A DNA stretch of 62,698 nt, counting the filler, from Pseudomonadota bacterium (GTDB lineage Bacteria > Desulfobacterota > Desulfobacteria > Desulfobacterales > JBDRRP01): the NCBI GenBank assembly GCA_043825735.1. It is 4 parts of 4 records of this genome, joined end to end, with 100 filler letters (N's around TTAATTAATTAA, not from the genome) between each part and the next. Parts side by side here need not be neighbours in the genome. Positions count along the whole stretch, not along the records: positions 1 to 24,252 come from JBDRRP010000059.1; 3 more parts are not named here. One strand, 5' to 3'. Position numbers and translations under genes: made by a program. How positions within the stretch are numbered: position 1 is the first letter of the stretch; every line of letters starts with the position of its first letter. Below the pieces are notes generated by a model. It did not search any database. It saw only the letters and a program-made list of their open reading frames with translations, and was not told the DNA's origin. Below, in pieces: positions 1-16,883 of this stretch.

Positions 1-79
1 TGTGTTGCGCAGTACTTCCTATTTGACGTTTCGTTGGCGAGTAGGGGTTATTCACCCCCATTTTAGCACTAAACGTCAA

Positions 80-206
80 GTGGCCTCATTACGGCGATCA
101 CAAGGTGGCTCGATTGCGCCGATCATCAGGTGGCCTCATTGCGGCGATCACAGGGTGGCTCGTTTACGGCGATCACGGAATGGCTCTATAGCGCCGATCA
201 CTAACA
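80..206. mobile_element. IS21-family-like element end with five 25-bp subterminal repeats
   Basis: Five tandem 25-bp units (GTGGCYY...RCGSCGATCA) at 80, 105, 130, 155 and 180, ending ...CACTAACA at 206 (TG..CA terminus). Multiple subterminal repeats are typical of IS21. No transposase in the window. Confidence 0.65.
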
Positions 207-468
207 AAAATGAACGATTTCCAACTTTTTTGAAATCAACTTGGTTTTTGTCTTGTAAATAGCGGGCGATCGTTGAAAACAACCAACCTGTCTCATTATC
301 AATTTTATTGCCGAGCGGATATGCTGACATTTTCAGCCCAAGCTAATCTTTGATGTAAATCGCAGGCACCCAACCGTTAGAAAAATCGTTTTCAACTGAT
401 TGGATATACGACAATACCTCGGCAGACATTAAGCCAATCAATTCGTGAATTTGCCGTTTATGGTCCAT
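207..468 (-). pseudogene. Hypothetical gene remnant with internal stop, truncated by the IS end
   Basis: ATG at 468 reads MDHKRQIHELIG...YIKD*LGLKMSAYPLGNK...GNRSF, with an in-frame TAG at 343-345; the frame runs into the IS end at 206. Confidence 0.55.
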
Positions 469-493
469 TCAACCATCTCATAATCATTGCACA

Positions 494-570
494 GTCGCAG
501 TAGGGATACCGGTTACCCGGCACCCCCCGCACAGATCCCGGCGTGCAGTATTACTGCACTCGGCTCCTCA
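494..570 (-). ncRNA. Group II intron 3' remnant (domains V-VI)
   Basis: Minus strand reads GAGCCGAGTGCAGTAATACTGCACGCCGGGATCTGTGCGGGGGGTGCCGGGTAACCGGTATCCCTACTGCGAC: DV hairpin, DVI hairpin and terminal AC. No RT ORF upstream. Confidence 0.85.
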
Positions 571-679
571 ATGGTACTCGCTTCCGTGATCCTTACCTGT
601 CAATCGCCTAAATTGGGAGTCCACTTCATCCACCAAGCTCTCGGTGGTGCATTTTGATCTGAAAGTGAAACTCACCAAA

Positions 680-1576
680 TCAGTTCGGCAGTTCCCAAAA
701 CCAAATTTCTTTCGCTCTGCTAAACGAATAGCCCGACCCGGTCAGAGCTCCGTCCCACACGTCAATGTGGTCTCCGGATAACCGCAAGGTACTCAGTCGG
801 AAGTCTGCGTCGCGGAAAAAGATCACTCCCTTATGCCCCCCGAGCTTGGCTCGAGCCGTGTGCCAATCATCGTATCGTTTCATTTGATGCCAATCCCTAG
901 CCAATCGATCAGCGAGTTGCTGTGCCTGCACATAGAACCGCTCCAGTACCTCTGTGCCACGAAAAGCCGGTTCGATAATGTTAGTGTCAATGTCTGCAAG
1001 ACTCTTTTCTTTCAATTTCGGGTCTGGCCGCAAATCAAGGGCTGCACTAAGTACCACAGCACACCGCGCACGAAAGTGCTCTTTGCTTGCGAACAATGTC
1101 TCTGCGAACTTACGTTTCTCTTGATAAGCTTCTGAAACATCGCGAAATAATGGATTGTCTAATTCTTTTTTTAAACTTTCCCGGACTTCCTCTTGATTTT
1201 CTTGATTATCGAGCTCTTCCTTCAAGTAATTTCGGGTTTCACCTTGCATCTCTCTATCGTCGATCATATCCTTCAAGCGATTCCTGCCGCCCTCTTGCTT
1301 CTTTTCAAGCTCCTCCTTGCTGCGCAATCCCTCATCCATCTTTTCCTTCAGCTTTTCCCTGAACTCCTTTTGCCTTTTCTCTTTATCTTCTAGCGACTCG
1401 CCGGGTGTTGGACAACCTCCGGGGCCACACCTGAAACACTCTTCATTACAATAACAGGGCGGATTTGGCTCGCATACGCCCCTTACAGAAGAAATTTCCG
1501 CATGGATTTGCCATGGACAAAGGGCTGAACACAATACCGTTACAATGACTGTCTCGAAAAACCGTAAAACATTCAT
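680..1576 (-). CDS. Secreted protein with C-terminal Tae4-like (papain/NlpC-P60 fold) peptidoglycan amidase domain
   Basis: Signal peptide, Cys-rich segment, charged coiled coil, then RCAVVLSAAL ... KGVIFF ... GDHIDVWDG ... IWFWEL, matching the Tae4 Cys/His motifs. Confidence 0.65.
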   Translation of the reverse strand: MNVLRFFETVIVTVLCSALCPWQIHAEISSVRGVCEPNPPCYCNEECFRCGPGGCPTPGESLEDKEKRQKEFREKLKEKMDEGLRSKEELEKKQEGGRNRLKDMIDDREMQGETRNYLKEELDNQENQEEVRESLKKELDNPLFRDVSEAYQEKRKFAETLFASKEHFRARCAVVLSAALDLRPDPKLKEKSLADIDTNIIEPAFRGTEVLERFYVQAQQLADRLARDWHQMKRYDDWHTARAKLGGHKGVIFFRDADFRLSTLRLSGDHIDVWDGALTGSGYSFSRAKEIWFWELPN

Positions 1577-1605
1577 GGTTTTTTAAACCATCGATATTAT
1601 GAACG

Positions 1606-2037
1606 TTACTTTAGCTTATCATCCGGCACATCAACGCGGTATGATTTCCCCGATTTCCATTTCGTTGGGCAGACGCCGCATATTTTTGTACACCTTGTTT
1701 GAGTGTCTAAAAATTCTTTTTCAGTTAAGTTTATCTTCTTATCTTCCGACGAAGGATAGGTTTCCTTACATTCAATCAGCGTCGATCCGGCCTCTTCCCG
1801 TGACATACATTCAAAAATTCTGCATATCACACAAGCTTCAGGGTATACCCTACATTGCACAGATATTCTGTCGCCAATGTTCATATGACAATCACCATCC
1901 ATGGATGGAAAAAGCGAATCGCGGTACCTGCTGTCTTCACAACTTGCGGGGTAATTCATAATCTCTAACGCATACCCAGAGCTTGTAATGAAGGCAATCG
2001 TGGCAAACACTATTAAAGATACAGTCAGTAATCGCAT
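1606..2037 (-). CDS. Cys-rich exported hypothetical protein
   Basis: AGGAGG RBS, signal peptide, about 10 Cys; 29 bp upstream of the amidase gene. Confidence 0.7.
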   Translation of the reverse strand: MRLLTVSLIVFATIAFITSSGYALEIMNYPASCEDSRYRDSLFPSMDGDCHMNIGDRISVQCRVYPEACVICRIFECMSREEAGSTLIECKETYPSSEDKKINLTEKEFLDTQTRCTKICGVCPTKWKSGKSYRVDVPDDKLK

Positions 2038-2303
2038 TTACTGCACCTCCTTTTTCAATACAATGCCTATAATTCTGGTTTTCAACTCACATAATACGCA
2101 ATTGTTCCAAAGATTATAGGACCAATATGATTTTTCAAATATCATTCGTAATAATTTATTTGGAGTATTTGTCATTGCATCAAAGTCCACCGACTTTACT
2201 GTAAACGCCACCCGGCCAAATTTGATTACATGTTTATAGATCCTCGTCGTTTCGAAATTTCTATAGATGAGAACTGATTTAAATATTCATCCGTCATTCG
2301 AAA

Positions 2304-2348
2304 GCACCGCCAATTGCAGAATGATAGGCGTAGTGTGCAGGTTGTAAC
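2304..2348 (-). repeat. Conserved post-attC element, copy D (partial)
   Basis: GTTACAA...CGCCTATCATTCTGCAATTGGCGGTGC, shared with copies at 5427, 7464 and 8488. Confidence 0.85.
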
Positions 2349-2427
2349 GTCTGGGTTAAGCTGAAGCCGAGAACAGCGAGGGAATTTGGCCGTATGCCAA
2401 ATTTTCAGCTTGACCCCTTTGTTATCC
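2342..2427 (-). other. Integron attC site (86 bp)
   Basis: R'' GGATAAC overlaps the stop codon; GGGTCAAGCTGA / TCAGCTTAACCC stem; R' GTTACAA. Confidence 0.85.
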
Positions 2428-3186
2428 TTTTGCTTGCTTTCTTATAGAATAAGGGTTTGCAGCTTGGGAAAACTGAAAATCAATTTTTTCAACCTCGAAA
2501 AGGTAGCAGTTGACTAACCGAGCTGCTTCAACGTTAAATAACGCTACGTTGTGTCCTTTTCCCAATAGGCTCTTGTAAATAATCCCGTCAAATCCATTTG
2601 TTTTAAATAATTCTGCTATAATTTGTGTTGGAACATAATCCGCATTCCGATCAGTGTTTGTTGTCGGTCTTGAAAAAGCTTGGTCAATATGCGACCAAAC
2701 AGCTTGTTCTCTTTCTTCTGGAATCGGCTCTTCAATGTATATCGGAGTTAAATTTTGGTGCAATGAACAATCAATTAATTTCTGCCTTTTTGTAATTTTG
2801 AATTGCCCAAGCGAAACAAATGTTCCTAACCATGGCCGCACTTCCGCCATGGCTGTATTTTTGTCATTCCCTAAATATAAATAAGGAATGCCTTTTGGAT
2901 TTACTCTACCTTCTTCAGCCTCATATTTCAGGGGGAGCATTCTTTCTGGTGGGTAGGGGGATGGTTCGTCAGCAATATGTTCATATTCGTGTAAAATTGG
3001 ACGCCAGGAATGCCCGAGCTGCGCCCTCCATAAATATTTATCTTGTGGCAGGTCAACGATCCTACTTGTGCATGTCGACAGAACAGTATCTAAAAACTGA
3101 TTAATCTCAGGCGAGCGGAAATATCTATTTTCTTTCCTTACAATGCTTTCAAATTTCCAATAGTCTTGCCATGATACAAATTGCAT
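2422..3186 (-). CDS. RES-domain (NAD+-consuming) protein, gene cassette
   Basis: GRVNPKGIPYLY, TAMAEVRP and YVPTQ...GFDGIIYKS motifs; cassette starts GTTATCC (3205-3211) and ends GGATAAC. Confidence 0.85.
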   Translation of the reverse strand: MQFVSWQDYWKFESIVRKENRYFRSPEINQFLDTVLSTCTSRIVDLPQDKYLWRAQLGHSWRPILHEYEHIADEPSPYPPERMLPLKYEAEEGRVNPKGIPYLYLGNDKNTAMAEVRPWLGTFVSLGQFKITKRQKLIDCSLHQNLTPIYIEEPIPEEREQAVWSHIDQAFSRPTTNTDRNADYVPTQIIAELFKTNGFDGIIYKSLLGKGHNVALFNVEAARLVNCYLFEVEKIDFQFSQAANPYSIRKQAKG

Positions 3187-3204
3187 GATTAATAATTCTT
3201 TATA

Positions 3205-3232
3205 GGATAACGTTCATTTTTATTAGAGGTCG
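3205..3232 (-). other. attI-like cassette entry site
   Basis: CCTCTAATAAAAATGAAC|GTTATCC; the core is the complement of the cassette's inverse core, and no attC stem lies upstream. Confidence 0.55.
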
Positions 3233-3427
3233 TGTTCAATTAATTTTGGGCCAACGTCAAACTGATTCGGTTTATTCCATACGAGGGCTATTTGCCAGGT
3301 TACTATATCGCCCTGATTCGCCTCCGGCTGCACAATAATTGGCGTAGTACCTCGGCAAATTCGGGAACTGAGAAGAGGGAAATGTATTAGCCTTTTCCAG
3401 CCGACTCTCCAACGACTTATCAGGTGA

Positions 3428-4144
3428 CTATAATTCGTGAAGCCTAGGAATATGATCGTTAGATTTTATATCATTATGCATGACAATATCATAAATTGCA
3501 GTGTTATAATCGGATATTAACGCCAAAAGAAGTTCAAAGTCAAAAAACCGAATTAGTTTCCCATCCTCGAAGAGATACGGTTTCCCTCTGTATTCTATGG
3601 TTTGATTTTGCCTATTGGGTGGGCTATAAACTCCATTTGTATGAATTGTGTTTCTTATTAGCCTGTGAAATGTAAAAATGCGTTTATATTGTTTTCTATC
3701 AAGCTGATTTAAAGTATAATCACAGATGCTGCTGAAATTTGCCCGTCCAGAATTACATGCGTCAGGATCTATTGAAATGACTAAGCTTCTAAAAAGCTCT
3801 TCAGTAATTGTGAAGGTAATATTTGATGTCCCGAAGAGAATAATTGCGAAAAACTCCTTAATATGTCCTGAAATATGGTTTTCATTGAATTCTGCAGTTT
3901 TCGATCGCCACCAGTCTGGAAAACAAAGTTGATCTCGCGTAAAAATAAACGATGTCTGAGCAACTTGTAGGACTTTTTTAGCCCCAGTAAACCAAGCCCA
4001 TCTAACATCGTTTTCTTGTTCCCAAGCAGGGAACTCCTTTCTTATATTTGATATGCTGACTCTTATTTCATCTTTAACTTTTTCGCTTGGGTTTAGTCGA
4101 GAGTCTGCCAATTGACTCCAATATTGCATATTCATAATCTTCAC
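3428..4144 (-). CDS. Hypothetical protein, possible HEPN-like domain
   Basis: 238-aa AT-rich ORF; IRNTIHTNG resembles the HEPN RNxxxH motif but is one residue shorter. Confidence 0.55.
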   Translation of the reverse strand: MKIMNMQYWSQLADSRLNPSEKVKDEIRVSISNIRKEFPAWEQENDVRWAWFTGAKKVLQVAQTSFIFTRDQLCFPDWWRSKTAEFNENHISGHIKEFFAIILFGTSNITFTITEELFRSLVISIDPDACNSGRANFSSICDYTLNQLDRKQYKRIFTFHRLIRNTIHTNGVYSPPNRQNQTIEYRGKPYLFEDGKLIRFFDFELLLALISDYNTAIYDIVMHNDIKSNDHIPRLHEL

Positions 4145-4215
4145 CTATCCCATACGCATACACCGTTATCAATTCTAATATCTAATTATTAGACGCTATA
4201 AGATATGTATCAACG

Positions 4216-5271
4216 TCACCCACGGGTATCCCATTTACCAGCCCTTATTTCTTTAATTCTTTCCAATACAAATTCCGCATACTTTCGGTGATCATCTTTT
4301 TCTAAATGGACCTCAATGAACCTTTTAAAATTCTCCTCTGCCCTATCTAACAGTTCTAATTCAGCATAGATCAACCCCAAATTATACAGGCTCATTTTCG
4401 ATATTTCTTCTTCGTCATTCTTGGTGCGTTCTAAGGCTTTTTCATAAAAAACAGCAGCTTCCGGCAATGCATTAGCCTTAAATTTAAGTTGTCCGTAATA
4501 TATATATACTTCCGGATTTCTTGGCTCAATTTCAATAGCTCTTTTTGCATAATATTCAACCTTATCATCGTTTTCACTCTTTAAATATACTTCAGCAGCA
4601 GCCATACATGATCTCGAGAATTCTTCCACATAATTTAATCCTTCGATAATCTTTACTGCGCCATCGATATCGCCACTATCCTTTAATCCATTAGCCTCTT
4701 GTATTTTCTTTTCAAATTCACTGGGATTGAATCCGTAAAAACCTTTTTTTACTATATACTTTCTTTCATCATTCAAAGTTATTGAATCCAGCGATCCCCA
4801 TTCAGCGCGCCACTCAAAAAAAGGTGGGCTGAAATCACCAGAATAGTCAGGCATCTCAACATTCAAGCCACGAACTTTAGATAGTGCTTTAAAGTATTCC
4901 TGCATTCTTTGTATTGCTGCTCTCTTTTTCGCCTCTAATTCTACGCTACTCTTGGCTTTTAAACCTTTCATTTCATTAAAAACAACTCGCGTGAAGCTAT
5001 CCAGGTCTGACTTTAATATTTCGGTATTAATATTAGTTTTCTTTGCGCTTTCTTTTGTCTCTTCCATGCTTTTTGAAATCTTCGACTGCTCAATATGGTC
5101 GACAATAATTATTCCGATATTTATAATAAATATTAAAACCAGAAAATACAAAATGACGGAAGTTATATTGTGCCCAGCACTTGTTTTGACTTGGTTAATG
5201 TTATCTCTGTATATTTGTAACACAGATAGAGTTAATCCAACAAGCGTTGCTACAATTTTAAGATATAACAT
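4216..5271 (-). CDS. Membrane-anchored TPR protein
   Basis: Two N-terminal hydrophobic helices; C-terminal TPR-like repeats (AKRAIEIEPRNPEVY, YNLGLIYAEL). Confidence 0.75.
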   Translation of the reverse strand: MLYLKIVATLVGLTLSVLQIYRDNINQVKTSAGHNITSVILYFLVLIFIINIGIIIVDHIEQSKISKSMEETKESAKKTNINTEILKSDLDSFTRVVFNEMKGLKAKSSVELEAKKRAAIQRMQEYFKALSKVRGLNVEMPDYSGDFSPPFFEWRAEWGSLDSITLNDERKYIVKKGFYGFNPSEFEKKIQEANGLKDSGDIDGAVKIIEGLNYVEEFSRSCMAAAEVYLKSENDDKVEYYAKRAIEIEPRNPEVYIYYGQLKFKANALPEAAVFYEKALERTKNDEEEISKMSLYNLGLIYAELELLDRAEENFKRFIEVHLEKDDHRKYAEFVLERIKEIRAGKWDTRG

Positions 5272-5426
5272 ATTTAGAGCCCATATTTTAGGTAGCTATG
5301 ACAACCTCAACATTTATACTTCCTCACACATATTTAAAATGTTTAGGATGCCCATAATTCCATCCCAATTATTTCCTCGTGTGGCATTTTACTGAAGCCC
5401 GAAGGTGGTTCTCGGTCTTGAATACA

Positions 5427-5508
5427 GCAGAATGTTTGCCATGTTCCTCTATCAACCTGACGCACCCCCATTTGCAGAATGATAGGCGTATAGGGCGCGG
5501 TTTGTAAC
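5427..5508 (-). repeat. Conserved post-attC element, copy C
   Basis: GTTACAA...CGCCTATCATTCTGCAAATGGGGGTGCGTCAGGTTGATAGAGGAACATGGCAAACATTCTGC. Confidence 0.9.
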
Positions 5509-5564
5509 GTGAAGTTGAGGGGCGGTGCGCTTTTGTGCCGCCCCGCTCGAACGTAAGGTTAGAC
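5502..5564 (-). other. Integron attC site (63 bp)
   Basis: GTCTAAC-CTTAC-GTTCGAGCGGGGCGG...CCGCCCCTCAAC-TTCAC-GTTACAA; classic R''/L''/L'/R' layout with an extrahelical base. Confidence 0.92.
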
Positions 5565-5867
5565 ATGGCTACCAGAACCAATTGCAGCATTTGGCACAAC
5601 ATTTGTGATGCCAGCCTCTTTTACTATCTGGCCGACAATAGTGCCCGATATATTAAGCTCACCACCTTTGTTGATTGCATCACCAGATACCATACCCGGA
5701 ATATTTGCGACGCCACCAGGTTCTACAATCAGATTTTTGGATACCATCCCATGTAGATGTAAAACGCCGCCGTTTTTAACTATGGCATTACCAGTAATCA
5801 TTCCGTGCAACTTTAATTCAGAGGAGATTTCAATATCACCTTCTAACTTTCCGTGTTCAGTGTTCAT
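5559..5867 (-). CDS. Small beta-helix (bactofilin-like) protein, gene cassette
   Basis: Repeated LxGMVxGNxxV motifs; AAGGAG RBS; stop codon inside R''. Confidence 0.7.
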   Translation of the reverse strand: MNTEHGKLEGDIEISSELKLHGMITGNAIVKNGGVLHLHGMVSKNLIVEPGGVANIPGMVSGDAINKGGELNISGTIVGQIVKEAGITNVVPNAAIGSGSHV

Positions 5868-5888
5868 TTGCTCTCCTTGATGATTAAT

Positions 5889-5954
5889 GTCTATCGGCCA
5901 GCTTAAGCGGCGCGGCGCAATTTGCCGCGCCCGTTCTTAAAGCTGTTGTTTTGC
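5889..5954 (-). other. attC site with both cores mutated (66 bp)
   Basis: GCAAAAC (expected GCATAAC) ... CAGCTTTAAG-GGGCGCGGC / GCCGCGCC-CTTAAGCTG ... GATAGAC (expected GTTAGAC). Confidence 0.8.
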
Positions 5955-7097
5955 TATTTTTTTAACCATTTCTATTACTTTAGGCAAATTGATTTCAAAC
6001 CCCTTTCCCTTGTACGGCTTTAGTTTAATCAAATCATCAAAAAAACTAACCCCATCCGATTCCTTCTCTTTTTCTACAACCTTTACAAGGGAGCCAACCA
6101 AAACATTTGTGTTGTAATCTTTTAAAGTAACAATATGGTCTTGCTGGACTAAGATTGTTGCCTCTGCTAACCTGAGCTGAGATTTCAGGTGGTGTATCGC
6201 AGCTTCCATACGCTGAAACTTAATTTGATTTTCGACGCCAGTCGAAATAGGTTCAATTTGTGAGTTGTGTAAGGCTGGAATTGTTAAAAATATTGAAAAC
6301 GCCTGACTAATTCTTTCTATAGCTTCGTTTTTATCTTTAGGCGCCACCGAAAAAAGTATTTCTTTCCCTTTTCGATTTATTTCCGTATCTGTTTCTATAC
6401 CAATATCTGATAAAAATTGCCCGAAATAACCTAAGTATTGTTCACACTCATGTTTTAAGTGATCTGGAAAAATAAATTGCGCTTTGAACGGATATTCATA
6501 AAAGATGTTCCTTATATTATCTAATGCCTTTTGATGTAACTCATTTGCCCTTGGCAATAAGGAATTGTAAAGATCCCTAATTTTGAAACTCTCACTGGGC
6601 TTATGGCAAAGGTAAATGGCTGAGTATTCGTCCTGCAAATCTTCCTCATATTCATTAAACATAGAATATTCATCAGTTTTATGCAGTCTTTTAAGCTCAT
6701 CAAATAGAGCCTTAATGCTCCAATTATATGGCCATTCAAAATGGCTATACCAAACCCTAAACCCAATACCTTCCCTGTAGAGCTTTATTACATCGATATT
6801 TCTTTCACTCTCAGGGTTTTCTACGGAAAGAACCGTATTGCCTGGTATATCGGTAATGTTGAAATCCAAAAAATCGTTTAAGGACAATCTCCCTGTTTCA
6901 ATTATTTCAAGTGGCTTTTCCCCTGGCCAGTTATTCCAAATTGTTTTCGACTTAATTTTGGGAAGAATATCACCAACCAATTCGTAATAAAGATGAATGT
7001 TTTCAATCTTTCTGTTCCCAAGGATAAGATTGACATTAACAAAAGTTTGCGCCTCTTTGAGATCTCTTTCCCCATCCAATTCTAATTTTATCATCAT
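5937..7097 (-). CDS. Hypothetical protein, gene cassette
   Basis: AT-rich ORF of about 386 aa beginning after core GTTATGC (7109-7115); start placed at ATG 7097. Confidence 0.75.
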   Translation of the reverse strand: MMIKLELDGERDLKEAQTFVNVNLILGNRKIENIHLYYELVGDILPKIKSKTIWNNWPGEKPLEIIETGRLSLNDFLDFNITDIPGNTVLSVENPESERNIDVIKLYREGIGFRVWYSHFEWPYNWSIKALFDELKRLHKTDEYSMFNEYEEDLQDEYSAIYLCHKPSESFKIRDLYNSLLPRANELHQKALDNIRNIFYEYPFKAQFIFPDHLKHECEQYLGYFGQFLSDIGIETDTEINRKGKEILFSVAPKDKNEAIERISQAFSIFLTIPALHNSQIEPISTGVENQIKFQRMEAAIHHLKSQLRLAEATILVQQDHIVTLKDYNTNVLVGSLVKVVEKEKESDGVSFFDDLIKLKPYKGKGFEINLPKVIEMVKKIAKQQL

Positions 7098-7108
7098 GTT
7101 TTCTCTAA

Positions 7109-7130
7109 GCATAACAGTTATTAGACGGCA
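7109..7130 (-). other. attI-like cassette entry site
   Basis: TGCCGTCTAATAACT|GTTATGC, with no attC palindrome upstream. Confidence 0.6.
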
Positions 7131-7463
7131 ATCGCCATGTAGTTCGGAAACCTAAGTCGAAAAACTAACCGAACCGATATGAAATCAATCGGTTACGATT
7201 ACGGCCCTTATCGGGTTAGGCGGTGATTGCCGCCGGTCTCAGTTTAGGCCGCAAACACTTGATCGTTGACCGCTTAACTTCGGCGTGACGATGGCAGAAG
7301 CTGTAAAATTGGCTTATAAAAACGAGCAATTGGGTAGCGTTCTGATTATTTAAATTTTCTGCCGCAAAGTCGACGTATTTAGGATTGTTTTAAACTCAAC
7401 CCACTAATATCCCATAGTGGCATTTCTGCTTAGATCCGTGAGTCGTCTCCGGACTTGTAAACC

Positions 7464-7542
7464 GCAGAATATTTGCCATGTTCCTCTTTCAACCTGTTGA
7501 ACCGCCAATTGCAGAATGATAGGCGGAATGCGCGATTGTAAC
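7464..7542 (-). repeat. Conserved post-attC element, copy B
   Basis: GTTACAA...CGCCTATCATTCTGCAATTGGCGGTTCAACAGGTTGAAAGAGGAACATGGCAAATATTCTGC. Confidence 0.9.
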
Positions 7543-7583
7543 GCTGAGCTGAGGGGGCGGGCAACTTCACCCTAAAGCCTTCA
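7536..7583 (-). other. Deleted-cassette remnant (right half of an attC only)
   Basis: ...GCCCGCCCCCTCAGCTCAGCGTTACAA resembles L'/R'; only about 40 bp separate it from the previous attC. Confidence 0.6.
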
Positions 7584-7642
7584 AAATAACGTTTGAGCTG
7601 TTGGGCGCGGCTTTTTGCGTCCCCACCAGCGATATGTTAAGT
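7584..7642 (-). other. Integron attC site (59 bp)
   Basis: ACTTAAC-ATATC-GCTGGTGGGGACGC...GCGCCCAACAGC-TCAAAC-GTTATTT. Confidence 0.9.
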
Positions 7643-8374
7643 AGCCTTTTTATATATTTCAGCTTCGTAATCAACTTTTGGATCCAAACAATAATATACA
7701 AATGGTTTGGCTAATTCAGTTGTTTTGTAAACAGCGCTTTTGGTGATAGGATCGTCAGACATACCCATGGGTTTTACCAACCCCACATTAGACAGTGAAG
7801 AATACAAAACGACTAATTCTTTCCAACGAATATTTGCTGGGGCGCCACAAGATTCTTGGATTTCACCTGCAGGCACAACTTTATTCACTAATTCATGAAG
7901 GTTTAATTCCTCATCACCCATTACAACGGAAAAATCGTATAGATCCAAATCATTATGGGCAATATGCGATAAAAATTCTTCAATATGACCTGAAGGGAGC
8001 GATTCAAAAACTTTTAAAACCGCTTCTTCAATCACGTTGCTTTTCCCTGGGCTCTTAAGTCGATGCCGAATAAAGTTCCTTATTCGATTCAATTTTTCCC
8101 TTGGCTCGTTTTTGAAAATCGACAGGCATAATTGAGAAATTCCTCCCCGGAATATTGAATCGTTTAGCAAACTTTCTATAGGAACCTTTAAATCTTGAAT
8201 ATCTTTTTCAATGGATTTGATGATTTCATTAAATTTTTTCGTGTTATCTGCCTGAATAGCAGCCGTAAGGGTGCTTGAAATTGCTGGCCCAACAATCGGC
8301 ACGACGCCTACGATGGTTGATGTAAATGCCTTGACTGCTTCTTTGCCTGGAGAGGATAGTTTTATATTACTCAT
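7637..8374 (-). CDS. Hypothetical protein, gene cassette
   Basis: 245-aa ORF bounded by core GTTAAGT (8403-8409) and inverse core ACTTAAC containing the stop. Confidence 0.8.
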   Translation of the reverse strand: MSNIKLSSPGKEAVKAFTSTIVGVVPIVGPAISSTLTAAIQADNTKKFNEIIKSIEKDIQDLKVPIESLLNDSIFRGGISQLCLSIFKNEPREKLNRIRNFIRHRLKSPGKSNVIEEAVLKVFESLPSGHIEEFLSHIAHNDLDLYDFSVVMGDEELNLHELVNKVVPAGEIQESCGAPANIRWKELVVLYSSLSNVGLVKPMGMSDDPITKSAVYKTTELAKPFVYYCLDPKVDYEAEIYKKAT

Positions 8375-8402
8375 TTTTCCGACACAATCATATTGCTAAA
8401 GC

Positions 8403-8427
8403 ACTTAACATTCATATTAATAGACTT
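8403..8427 (-). other. attI-like cassette entry site
   Basis: AAGTCTATTAATATGAAT|GTTAAGT. Confidence 0.55.
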
Positions 8428-8487
8428 CTCATTCGACATGGATTAGGCCGACGTCGGCCTAATTCTGTAGCAATTGTCATGAGGGTT

Positions 8488-8559
8488 GTTTGCCATGTTC
8501 CTCTTTCAACCTGGTGCACCGCCAATTGCAGACTGATATGCGTAATGCACTGGTTTAAC
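8488..8559 (-). repeat. Conserved post-attC element, copy A
   Basis: GTTAAAC...CGCATATCAGTCTGCAATTGGCGGTGCACCAGGTTGAAAGAGGAACATGGCAAAC. Confidence 0.88.
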
Positions 8560-8612
8560 GCATTTCACAGTGGCAGCGGAACCGAGCTCGCTGAAGGCTG
8601 AATCGGTTATGA
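8553..8612 (-). other. Degenerate attC-like site (60 bp)
   Basis: TCATAAC at the stop codon and GTTAAAC 60 bp away; internal symmetry is weak. Confidence 0.45.
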
Positions 8613-9053
8613 TTTCTGCAATTTCAAAGTGACTGAATCGAGCAGGTATCTGGTCGGGATGATCGGAAAGCCCCCTTCTATTCCGGCCCTTAACCATTCT
8701 GAAATCTGGTCGACATATTTTTGATCTACGGCATAGAGCGACACCAGGAATAGATCAGACGCTCCGCCTTCATATATGTTTGTTCTGAACTGGACGTTTG
8801 GTTGGATCCACGGGAGTTTCGGCCAGCAGAGGCGGAGTTCTTCGACGTCGACCGCCATAATTACCTTGTACCCTTCCGGGATCCTGCTTGTCTTGCCGAC
8901 GATGGTGAAAGTGCGCGGGACAGATGTGCCGGCGGCTGGAGAGGTGATTTGCCCCCAAGGGGCATTTGGATCTTTTTTATCCGATAGCTTTGAATAGACA
9001 GCGGTACCGGTGCCCCTCAATGTTCTTAAATCCGAATTTGTTGATTTCGTCAA
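8607..9053 (-). CDS. Hypothetical protein with Ig-like strand pattern (possibly 5'-truncated)
   Basis: QITSPAAGTSVPRTFTIVG motif; TTG start uncertain. Confidence 0.55.
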   Translation of the reverse strand: MTKSTNSDLRTLRGTGTAVYSKLSDKKDPNAPWGQITSPAAGTSVPRTFTIVGKTSRIPEGYKVIMAVDVEELRLCWPKLPWIQPNVQFRTNIYEGGASDLFLVSLYAVDQKYVDQISEWLRAGIEGGFPIIPTRYLLDSVTLKLQKS

Positions 9054-9146
9054 TGACTAAAAGGAAGGCCGAAATTTAGAATTCAGTACGAAGTCATTTA
9101 CATAATATACTGGACCGGTTTCGGGACCCCAATGTTCCTGAGATAA

Positions 9147-9174
9147 CTGGATCCCGGCCATCGCCGGGATGACG
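9147..9174. repeat. REP-like palindrome
   Basis: CTGGATCCCGGCCATCGCCGGGATGACG; related copies near 16636, 25080, 51826-51893 and 56801. Confidence 0.75.
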
Positions 9175-9241
9175 GGACCTCTGGGCACAGCAACTCCAAC
9201 CGGATCGACCGGTTTAGTCGGCATCCTTCAGGCTTTAAAAC

Positions 9242-9282
9242 AAAACAGGCGTCTGCGCGGTGTTTGCGCAGACGCCTGTTTT
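9242..9282 (-). terminator. Intrinsic terminator after tRNA-Phe
   Basis: AAAACAGGCGTCTGCGC / GCGCAGACGCCTGTTTT hairpin. Confidence 0.85.
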
Positions 9283-9285
9283 AAC

Positions 9286-9361
9286 TGGTGCCGAGGGACA
9301 GAATCGAACTGCCGACACGGGGATTTTCAGTCCCCTGCTCTACCGACTGAGCTACCTCGGC
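9286..9361 (-). tRNA. tRNA-Phe(GAA)
   Basis: GCCGAGGTAGCTCAGTCGGTAGAGCAGGGGACTGAAAATCCCC...GTTCGATTC...CTCGGCACCA, 76 nt. Confidence 0.98.
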
Positions 9362-14592: not shown

Positions 14593-15447
14593 ATGAATCC
14601 AGAAGACGGCCTGATCACGCTGGCGCTGGCCGAAGACATCGGCACCGGCGATATCACCACCGACGCCCTCATCGCCAAAGAGCAAACGGGCCGGGGCGTC
14701 ATCGTGGCCAAGGAAGACCTGATCGTGTGCGGGATAGAAACTGTCCGGCGCGTCTTTCATGCCGTCGATCCGGATATCCGCATCGACGGCGCCTGCCGCG
14801 ATGGGGACCGGATCGCTGCCGGCGCCACCGTAATGAGTGCGTCCGGCCGCATGGGGTCACTGCTTAAAGCCGAGCGCACCGCGCTGAACTTCCTCCAGCG
14901 CCTGTCCGGGATCGCCACACATGTGCGCACTTATGTGGATGCCCTGCCGGGGGAAACCAGCACCCGGCTGGTGGACACCCGCAAAACGACACCCGGGTGG
15001 CGCGCCCTTGAAAAATACGCGGTCCGCATCGGCGGTGCGGCCAACCACCGGATGGGTCTCTACGACGGCGTGCTTATCAAAGACAATCACATTGCCGCCT
15101 GCGGGGGCGTCGCCGACGCGGTGGCCCGCGCGCGCAGCGGCGTTCACCATCTGGTCAAGGTGGAAGTGGAGGTGAGTGACTTCGCGCAATTGGCCCAGGC
15201 ACTTGACGCCGGCGCCGACGTCATCATGCTGGACAACATGCCCATTGCGGACGTCAGAGAGGCTGTCAGGCGCATTGGCGGCAGGGCACTGTCGGAAGTT
15301 TCCGGCAATGTGTCCTTGAAAAATCTGTCAGCGCTGGCCGCCACCGGAGTGGACATCATATCGGTGGGCGCACTGACGCACCAGGCCCGATCGGTGGACT
15401 TGAGCATGCGCATCGCCGCTGCCGACCAAAATTTGACAAACTCGTAA
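14593..15447 (+). CDS. nadC: Nicotinate-nucleotide diphosphorylase (carboxylating)
   Basis: DTRKTTPG, NHRMGL, IKDNH, MLDN motifs. Confidence 0.97.
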   Translation: MNPEDGLITLALAEDIGTGDITTDALIAKEQTGRGVIVAKEDLIVCGIETVRRVFHAVDPDIRIDGACRDGDRIAAGATVMSASGRMGSLLKAERTALNFLQRLSGIATHVRTYVDALPGETSTRLVDTRKTTPGWRALEKYAVRIGGAANHRMGLYDGVLIKDNHIAACGGVADAVARARSGVHHLVKVEVEVSDFAQLAQALDAGADVIMLDNMPIADVREAVRRIGGRALSEVSGNVSLKNLSALAATGVDIISVGALTHQARSVDLSMRIAAADQNLTNS

Positions 15448-15565
15448 AAAGTCTGAATTCACCACAGAGGACGCAGAGAGCGCAGAGATAACTAATTATT
15501 CATAATATTCTCTGCGGTCCTCTGCGCTCTCTGTGGTTCGAAATAATTTTCTACGGTTTCATCAA
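15432..15565. repeat. MITE-like element (GTAAAAAGT shell, CACAGAG-type core)
   Basis: TTTGACAAACTCGTAAAAAGTC...CACAGAGGACGCAGAG / CTCTGCG..CTCTGTG...TACGGTTTCATCAA; contains the nadC stop codon. Confidence 0.8.
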
Positions 15566-15594
15566 CACTTGAACCTTTAACATACTTACCCCCC

Positions 15595-16599: not shown

Positions 16600-16883
16600 T
16601 ATAAAACCGTATAAAGTCGAATTTTTCCTTCTTTCGTCATCCCAGACGAGTGAAACGAAATCCGGGATCCAGTGATTTCAAGCACTTCCGGACCCCGCCC
16701 TCCGCCGGGGTGACGGACTTTGGGACTTTTTACAAGGGCATCAACTTTGATGGATCCGTAAAAAGTGATTTTGAACCACAGAGGACGCAGAGAACCGCAG
16801 AGAATATGATTAATATTCAGTCAGATATCTCTGCGCTCTCTGCGTCCTCTGTGGTTATTTCGGACTTTTTACATGGCCATCAA
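16600..16883. repeat. Two tandem MITE-like elements (REP core and CACAGAG core)
   Basis: Each ends GACTTTTTACnnnnCATCAA; they join at CATCAACTTTGATG (about 16739-16752). Confidence 0.8.

Follow-up and report, generated by a model that had tools for sequence, protein, structure and literature searches.

The locus and its features

This report concerns short A/T-rich motifs ending in GTT, and the non-coding repeats that they terminate, in a 62,698-nt stretch of DNA from a metagenome-assembled genome of the order Desulfobacterales (GenBank assembly GCA_043825735.1); "the window" means this whole stretch. Window positions 1–24252 are a single contig (C59) of the 6.8-Mb genome, which is spread over 160 contigs, and the remainder of the window consists of other contigs joined by N. 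The sequencing run containing the stretch carries a groundwater metagenome label, and an independent assembly of run X1 gave one contig over 2306–9315 with zero differences. An A/T-rich island occupies window positions 1–9285 (GC 0.36–0.49 versus about 0.58 in the flank), abuts tRNA-Phe at 9286–9361 and has all of its sizeable open reading frames (ORFs) on the minus strand. It is best explained as an array of integron cassettes whose contig carries no integrase, in which coding cassettes alternate with a non-coding repeat family. Because the contig starts inside the island, the array is truncated at position 1, and an integrase gene (intI) could therefore lie further along it.

An earlier note on this DNA had described four motifs, here (a) to (d), and all of them are present on the minus strand where it had placed them; a fifth site was missed there. 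The features of the array are given below as read along the minus strand from the tRNA (z, fold z score; R1, the attC covariance model described further on).

9286–9361, minus: tRNA-Phe (GAA), ARAGORN, Rfam tRNA 70.4 bits; upstream border of the island and the cassette array, with GC falling from about 0.58 to 0.36–0.45 on its left
8607–9053, minus: ORF of 148 aa, the first island ORF; no family match
8557–8612, minus: possible decayed attC with R''-like CATAACC and R' GTTAAAC, read from the sequence; attC model silent; z −0.88, no stable stem
8409–8556, minus: type A repeat element (copy w8) with 75-nt head, palindrome TTAGGCCGACGTCGGCCTAA and unpaired end GTCTATTAATATGAATG/TT; nhmmer 8557–8380, E 1.2e-52
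8403–8426, minus: motif (c), AGTCTATTAATATGAAT/GTT, G of G/TT at 8409; 3' joint of type A copy w8
7637–8374, minus: cassette ORF of 245 aa; no family match
7583–7645, minus: canonical attC of the 245-aa cassette, R' GTTATTT; R1 72.6 bits, E 1.1e-17
7545–7582, minus: half attC, L'–R' arm only, ending GTTACAA; recognised in the sequence as the L' arm directly repeated, and does not fold; probably a remnant
7115–7544, minus: type B repeat element with 75-nt head, leader-like body of ~140 nt, 137-nt stem-loop region and end GCCGTCTAATAACTG/TT; nhmmer head 7535–7465
7113–7250, minus: long attC-like stem, CGGCGGCAATC(A/G)CCG...CGGCGATTGCCG, closing 10 nt before GTT; R''-like GCCTAAAC at 7243–7250; not found by R1
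7109–7127, minus: motif (a), CGTCTAATAACT/GTT, G of GTT at 7115; 3' joint of the type B element
5937–7112, minus: cassette ORF of 391 aa; no family match
5887–5957, minus: attC-like hairpin, R' box GATAGAC (GTT changed to GAT); model alignment 7.3 bits; z −2.38
5559–5867, minus: cassette ORF of 102 aa directly after the hairpin at 5887–5957, with no repeat element between
5500–5567, minus: canonical attC (GTCTAAC...GTTACAA) with the ORF stop codon inside R''; R1 34.6 bits
5269–5499, minus: type D repeat element with 75-nt head and single-copy body, ending CTCTAAATATG/TTA; nhmmer head 5504–5428
5266–5279, minus: fifth site, CTCTAAATATG/TTA, at the end of the type D element; its ATG is the start codon of the ORF at 4216–5271
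4216–5271, minus: ORF of 351 aa, membrane-anchored TPR protein (Pfam TPR families)
4182–4196, minus: motif (d), GCGTCTAATAATTAG, left half only, the next 11 nt lacking a GTT; lies where 71 nt separate two ORFs
3428–4144, minus: ORF of 238 aa; no family match
3211–3351, minus: diverged full-length type A copy (w3); nhmmer 3351–3201, profile positions 14–165, E 1.2e-18
3205–3229, minus: motif (b), CCTCTAATAAAAATGAAC/GTT, G at 3211; 3' joint of copy w3
2422–3186, minus: cassette ORF of 254 aa with RES domain (Pfam PF08808, E 2.1e-17)
2340–2430, minus: long attC of the RES cassette, R' GTTACAA; z −4.46, 0/200 shuffles as stable; model weak, 9.9 bits
2255–2339, minus: partial repeat head directly after attC; nhmmer 2345–2261, E 4e-9

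The repeating unit proposed earlier, a conserved element followed by a spacer, a site, one or two cassettes and an attC, is real, and on the minus strand each attC has the conserved element behind it. Behind the ORF at 3428–4144 an attC could not be detected (fold of 3350–3430, z +0.47). PADLOC gave no match for the nine window ORFs, and the 245-aa cassette protein, sought in 401 genomes of the order as the same cassette behind a plain attC, was found in its own genome only (1/401).

The motifs as ends of a repeat family

The pattern TCTAWTHA-N0-11-GTTA occurs three times in the 62.7-kb window, against 0.12 ± 0.33 expected, with 0/100 shuffles reaching three; for the island alone, 2000 first-order Markov simulations had a mean of 0.13 and none reached three. 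A slightly stricter pattern has nine matches on both strands of the 6.8-Mb genome, six of which are ends of one repeat family (three of these six lying within 3205–8427), and the remaining three are found on C68, C155 and at C115:13786. This excess arises because the repeat copies share descent, so that the occurrences are not independent. The ends read GTTA, or GTTC in one copy, and the full GTTRRRY consensus is present in 3/8 ends.

Every motif with a GTT is the 3' end of a non-coding repeat in which a common head of 75 nt is joined to a body that varies (types A, B and D). A type A profile built from four full copies recovered five full-length copies, namely window 8557–8380, window 3351–3201, C90:62544–62728, C112:54005–53821 and C115:73543–73724, together with partial copies on C112 and C79. 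The head alone was found at window positions 7535–7465, 5504–5428 and 2345–2261, and C11 and C112 together contribute four more occurrences. Type B has a second copy, C115:69058–69415, which is 83% identical over 358 nt, has the same GTT end and diverges right after it; a second copy of the type D body was not found.

Both boundaries of the repeat fall at or near G/TT points. On the left, window copies w2, w5, w7 and w8 and the copies on C115, at C11:4013 and in G018, a genome of another family of the order, start 14–19 nt after the GTT of an attC-type R' box, and three window copies share GTTACAA there. On the right, the five full type A and two type B copies end at GTT, and the copies on C115, C90, C112 and C79 end at the same place. 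For type A pairs (n = 6, leaving out w8, which has a 1-nt deletion) ungapped identity is 20–26/30 upstream of the joint versus 7–9/30 downstream, and for the type B pair it is 28/30 versus 8/30.

The unit after each joint is a different cassette, and an attC of its own closes it. The window cassettes of this kind hold the 245-aa, 391-aa and RES-domain ORFs, with attC sites at 7583–7645, 5887–5957 and 2340–2430. On C115 (L029, 69447–76465) an HNH–DUF4297–HerA cassette with its own attC at 73483 lies behind a repeat copy, as does a second multi-gene defence-type cassette comprising an EcoRI-like methylase, an ORF without known function and a GmrSD_N/HNH nuclease, with attC at 76401; on C90 a 162-aa ORF follows the repeat joint, with attC at 63318. 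The elements themselves are units between G/TT points on both sides without an ORF for a plausible protein, as expected of gene-less cassettes, and they lack the classical attC in which such cassettes end. With a probability that we put at roughly 55%, the motifs are joints formed by integrase crossover where gene-less, cassette-like repeats end in an integrase-less array.

The alternating layout is particular to some arrays of this genome, since the arrays on C57 and C48, where the next ORF begins less than 50 nt from attC at 7/9 sites, hold no repeat copy.

Comparison of the repeat ends with attC

Candidate attC sites were scored with a covariance model (R1) built from 15 attC sites of this genome (13 pairs, 8 with compensating changes), which is specific to the genome's short attC type and was used instead of a hairpin scan that proved too noisy. 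Genome-wide, R1 gave 21 sites at E up to 1 among 150 candidates scored, with arrays on C48, C57, C150, C50, C115, C90 and C41; one R1 site adjoins intI on C139. With filters off and E up to 10, the model had no match at the motif sites except for one stem-less local match at 7106–7125, and it is for this reason that the cassettes at 7637–8374, 5937–7112 and 2422–3186 are correctly described as not directly preceded by an attC.

One alternative, which we consider unlikely, is that the motifs are ordinary attC sites of gene-less cassettes that have decayed or become atypical, their stems eroded in type A and unusually long in type B, and that they recombine or once recombined as folded single strands. 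Type B comes closest to this description: a stem of 12–13 bp ends 10 nt short of the GTT, the R''-like GCCTAAAC stands 137 nt upstream, within the known range of attC lengths, and folding gives z scores of −1.9 and −2.6 in the window and of −4.5 and −4.9 on C115. The two spacers are unequal (6 versus 10 nt), and the two copies do not have a conserved R''. Long attC-like stems of this kind can be reconstructed beside motif (a) only, an outcome that the earlier note had named as counting against its own proposal. Among the type A copies a GGCAAAC/T word stands 84–85 nt before GTT in 5/5, and type C copies combine such a word, a short CTCGG/CCGAG stem and a GTT ~48 nt apart, with similarity ending at that GTT. 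Decay is also seen elsewhere in the array, where one R' is mutated to GAT and one attC is halved, and a truncated attC keeping only R'' is among the unusual cassette classes described in passages of PMC12901181.

Several observations argue against this alternative. The genome's own attC model does not score the sites, and in type A the GGCAAAC/T word could pair with R' over 3 bp only, the candidate stems are not conserved and show no compensating changes, the last 18–20 nt are unpaired in 5/5 copies and the consensus fold leaves GTT free. An unpaired 3' stretch of 18 nt is conserved as sequence in both types A and B, which points to recognition of sequence rather than of structure. Type A ends resemble the double-stranded "simple site" of attI or attG, and type B carries the same end beside a long, attC-like stem; type A leans towards a double-stranded attI-like site and type B towards an atypical or decayed attC.

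Comparison of the repeat ends with attI

The genome has two intI genes, on C139 and C64, that score 415.9 and 393.8 bits with TIGR02249 (cut-off 265) and have no stop codons; in both, the cassettes lie downstream of the intI 3' end. The same search found no intI on C59 and none beside any repeat copy. Homologues of the 414-aa IntI are present in 178/401 sampled genomes of the order, and for G018, G036, G001 and G002 there was no intI match at E 1e-40, a threshold at which the control genomes also had no match, so that this negative carries little weight. In this clade (L166–L182 and C139) the IntI proteins have about 414 aa, of which ~90 form an extension at the N-terminus, and point toward the cassettes, and a block repeated near the intI stop codon recurs downstream at the presumed attI joint.

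As attI reference we used 31 intI-downstream regions (30 loci from the homologue search plus C139), in nine of which a junction could be assigned by eye; the remaining 22, which lead into ordinary genes or lack a clear junction, were left out. The nine assigned junctions lie 209–237 nt after intI and have a common layout, AAAA-GC-GC...ATAAT-TA-A-G/TT. A dif/Xer-like reading of motif (c), considered by eye, was set aside because the likeness is confined to the GTTA arm.

The motifs may alternatively be true attI-type sites, that is, copies or fragments of attI comparable to delta-attI, which would act double-stranded as independent capture points from which the array grows internally. We regard this as possible but doubtful. 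An attI-like layout is indeed recognizable, in which GTTAAGT, GTTATGC, GTTATCC and GTTATAT each follow 4–10 nt after GTCTATT, GTCTAAT, CTCTAAT or CTCTAAA, the L-box being so called by resemblance only, and type A has an unpaired end. Of the 20 places on the island's minus strand that match [GC][CT]CTA[AT][ACT], 11 fall within the 1038 nt of repeat elements, the copies being homologous and not independent, and related attI regions hold GCCTAAC/GTCTAAT-like words, such as GTCTAATAAC 92 nt after intI in L174. With a 16-nt weight matrix of eight by-eye attI joints, (c) ranked 3rd among the 315 GTT sites of the island and the site at 5269 ranked 19th, and the last 11 nt of (c) agree with the assigned C64 junction at 8–9/11 positions, compared by eye in A/T-rich sequence; (a) and (b) have no comparable match. 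The type A mini-ORF ATG-AAT-G/TT spans the joint, and its stop overlaps the cassette start as ATGA in 2/4 occupied copies; this resembles ORF-11 of attI1 as presented in passages of PMC8876359. Functional cassettes of the delta-attI type inside arrays are documented in part of PMC12901181, and the delta-attI2 core AATAAAATGTTRRRY resembles (b).

Set against these likenesses, the repeat was found downstream of related intI genes in 0/31 regions (E 0.1), a 43-nt profile of eight by-eye attI junctions had no match at the motif sites at E up to 100, and (b) and (a) ranked 84th and 177th of 315 with the weight matrix. The AAAA-GC-GC block of the clade attI is missing from the repeat, and the comparison joints were placed by eye at 9/31 loci. 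Together with the lack of intI on the contig, these results do not bear out the earlier identification of the motifs as attI.

The repeat head and copies outside arrays

The 75-nt head is conserved as sequence in 14 copies and contains an ATG and a strong ribosome-binding site. Behind the head stand short ORFs of 8–27 codons with neither frame nor length conserved, and the elements contain no other ORFs. A GTTACA-N16-18-TATCAT match lies at two attC/repeat joints, and motif (d) overlaps the best promoter-like match of the minus strand, TTGATA-17-AATAAT at 4213–4185. A sigma-54 reading of TGGCAAATATTCTGC was dropped, as the spacing, judged by eye, fits 3–4 copies only. Rfam searches at the gathering score and at E up to 5 gave nothing at the repeats.

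Outside this genome the head follows an attC in G018, and head plus type B leader precede an ordinary sensor-kinase-like gene in G075, a member of another genus. A search of 61 relatives with the type A repeat gave weak partial matches only, in G018 and G036, and one of 401 genomes of the order with the type B repeat (two candidates per genome scored) gave one 69% partial match, in G075. A whole-collection scan with a head 16-mer returned at least 121 loci in which nhmmer finds no similarity beyond the seed, and these were discarded as chance matches; five loci from a 20-mer scan of metagenome contigs, all within unrelated sequence (L164 shares 24 nt), were likewise rejected. The contigs of three runs provided neither joints nor RNA cover of the repeats, and no RNA run is listed as containing the stretch.

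A third alternative does without integron recombination altogether, the repeat being either a promoter or leader dispersed through the genome or a small element mobilised by another enzyme, with GTT incidental or an attG-type hot spot. The copies outside arrays on C112 and the element upstream of the sensor-kinase-like gene in G075 are in keeping with it, as are a second family with a sharp breakpoint at CGCCTAT/ that has no GTT, a tyrosine recombinase fragment near the C112 copies, and attG sites, which according to parts of bioRxiv 10.1101/2022.09.11.507474 need little beyond GWT. It is hard to reconcile with three independent comparisons that break within 1–2 bases of GTT, and with array copies that coincide with G/TT at both ends and are followed by units carrying their own attC; we judge it improbable.

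The second breakpoint family is a 110-nt module (CCAATC..TTGACGGT.CAATACAGTC..GACAACGCCTAT) with five copies at L031 (C112), L035 (C80 region) and L033 (C11:761–821), of which two run on into the integron-associated repeat, whereas the other three break off abruptly at CGCCTAT; one of the five copies has a tyrosine-recombinase fragment beside it.

Several points weigh against reading the motifs as crossover joints of cassette-like repeats. The C112 copies at 54 kb and 42 kb lie between ordinary-looking genes and are fused to the 110-nt module instead of to an attC, so the repeat is not only a cassette; its occurrence outside arrays favours a role in expression or as a leader and counts against an origin confined to integrons. 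Weak similarity persists for ~18 nt past GTT in w8, C90 and the C112 copy at 54 kb (w8 versus C90, 15/30), and a G036 locus spans the same stretch; the break in these copies is therefore not exactly at G/TT. The "attC" before w8 has no stable fold (z −0.88) and none is detectable before w3. The head has no supported structure (consensus −2.1 kcal/mol, one covarying pair), and a sigma-70 scan gave 28 promoter-like sites versus 21.3 ± 5.2 expected, which is no enrichment, with none standing out. All copies come from one metagenome-assembled genome, apart from weak relatives in G018, G036 and G075, and no population variant indicating recombination at the sites was seen, the contigs of the three runs having given no joints.

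Anatomy of the elements and a proposed model of their recombination

Each element starts at the G/TT crossover of a preceding attC or attC remnant, continues through the 75-nt head with its ribosome-binding site and ATG into the variable body, and ends in an R''/L-box-like (G/C)TCTAWT, 4–10 A/T-rich bases and G/TTA, after which the copies cease to be alike and an unrelated cassette with its own attC follows. Under the reading that we prefer, of crossover joints at the ends of gene-less cassettes, the joints would have been made by IntI supplied in trans from the two intI genes elsewhere in the genome. The elements may supply expression signals, either a promoter or a translation start, for the cassette behind them, and the type A mini-ORF spans the joint as ORF-11 spans attI1.

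Of the two explanations in the earlier note, the second, that site-bearing units are themselves mobilised as cassettes, fits best: the units start at the G/TT of the preceding attC, they follow different attC sites in three arrays of the genome, and the head does so in another genus too. Its idea of entry sites survives in part, in that similarity stops at G/TT and a different cassette with its own attC follows, as at recombination joints, while the identity with attI is not upheld. "Tandem mini-integrons" overstates what is one integrase-less array of alternating gene-less and coding cassettes.

A more far-reaching version, which we offer tentatively and hold to be rather improbable, is that the repeat is a mobile "dock and express" module, a gene-less cassette with its own double-stranded attI-like capture site and a crossover-spanning mini-ORF leader. 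An integrase acting in trans would insert cassettes, including multi-gene defence systems, at internal positions where they would be expressed, and the module would hitch-hike with the cassettes that it captures.

Other features of the contig

At the tRNA border of the island, a GC-rich hairpin-bearing stretch at 9140–9220 (minus strand) lies between the tRNA-Phe terminator and the first island ORF, has GACTAAAC...GTTATCT ends (fold z −2.81) and could be the site of original array seeding. At the contig start, 4–5 tandem copies of a 25-nt unit (GGTGGCTCGATTGCGCCGATCACAA-like) occupy 76–200 (plus strand), and behind them 195–222 is 82% complementary to the motif (b) region at 3205–3232 (inverted repeat I1). 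A weak match to group II intron domain V/VI at 494–568 (minus strand; 21.8 bits, below the gathering score of 40), to whose positions 494–546 RNA-library contigs of runs X2 and X3 are 90–95% identical, may be the 3' remnant of a group II intron within the array. The region 680–2037 (minus strand) holds a 298-aa ORF with a Tae4-type amidase domain (E 4e-9) and, upstream of it, a 143-aa cysteine-rich ORF with a hydrophobic N-terminus; no attC separates the two, which may be an effector/immunity pair in one cassette. A very abundant repeat of ~130–280 nt, at 15444–15569, 16747–16882 and on many contigs (hundreds of BLAST hits genome-wide, 75–97% identity), has no relation to the integron elements and has the look of a miniature transposable element.

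Relation to known integron systems

The integron model provides for a single entry site, attI, and a single promoter, which stands at the array head, and it leaves two questions, namely how distal cassettes are expressed and how arrays without integrase or attI grow. Here, one paralogous non-coding element stands before nearly every coding cassette, two defence-system cassettes on another contig among them, and ends in a reused non-attC crossover site. If that site is active, it would be a concrete substrate on which internal capture points and cassette-linked expression signals could be tested in environmental chromosomal arrays, in a lineage where intI is common (178/401 sampled genomes of the order); if it is inactive, the locus remains a clear case from nature of recurring gene-less cassettes and of decaying attC sites. 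Full-text literature searches yielded no account of an array interleaved with copies of a single paralogous non-coding element that carries a reused non-attC site, which is not proof of absence.

Gene-less promoter-active cassettes have reportedly been found by Tansirichaiya and co-workers (2019) in integrons of oral Treponema. Such cassettes also appear in passages on Vibrio superintegrons (Blanco et al. 2024, PMC11014356), and the ORF-less cassettes treated in the sections of PMC8876359 that we used carry a classical attC. Like them, the elements are non-coding units between cassettes, bounded by crossover points and upstream of coding cassettes that they could drive. The differences are that their 3' site is not a canonical attC, that one paralogous family stands before nearly every coding cassette and also occurs outside arrays, and that a promoter role is predicted only.

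Clusters of attC sites without an integron integrase (CALIN), a category said to go back to Cury and colleagues in 2016, offer a second parallel. With two model-supported and two fold-supported attC sites in 2340–7645 and no intI on the 24-kb contig, the locus qualifies as a CALIN, being an attC-bounded cassette array; it differs in that the contig starts inside the array and that an interleaved repeat family lies outside the CALIN definition.

In integrons of classes 1 and 2, cassettes whose attC is replaced by an attI fragment have been shown to recombine, according to the portions of PMC12901181 used here. The likeness lies in an internal non-attC site within an array, with an A/T-rich core and then GTTRRRY (published cores AAACAAAGTTRRRY and AATAAAATGTTRRRY). 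The published site, however, is an identifiable fragment of the integron's own attI that replaces the attC of a coding cassette, whereas here descent of the repeat from the cognate attI is not shown, the site closes a non-coding repeat, and the host is a groundwater Desulfobacterales-like organism rather than a clinical mobile integron. The attG sites described in parts of bioRxiv 10.1101/2022.09.11.507474 are double-stranded genome sites with a GWT core used by integron integrases; they are similarly double-stranded and unstructured, with the cassette inserted at G/WT, but attG sites are many and loosely defined, while here one extended sequence of 15–20 nt is reused in several repeat copies. 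Finally, ORF-11 of attI1, a translation-coupling leader in the passages of PMC8876359 that deal with it, shares with the type A mini-ORF a start just before the crossover and a stop supplied by the inserted cassette, with the ATGA overlap in 2/4 copies; the type A mini-ORF differs in having no clear Shine-Dalgarno sequence before it in the four cases compared, and its coupling to the cassette behind it is a prediction.

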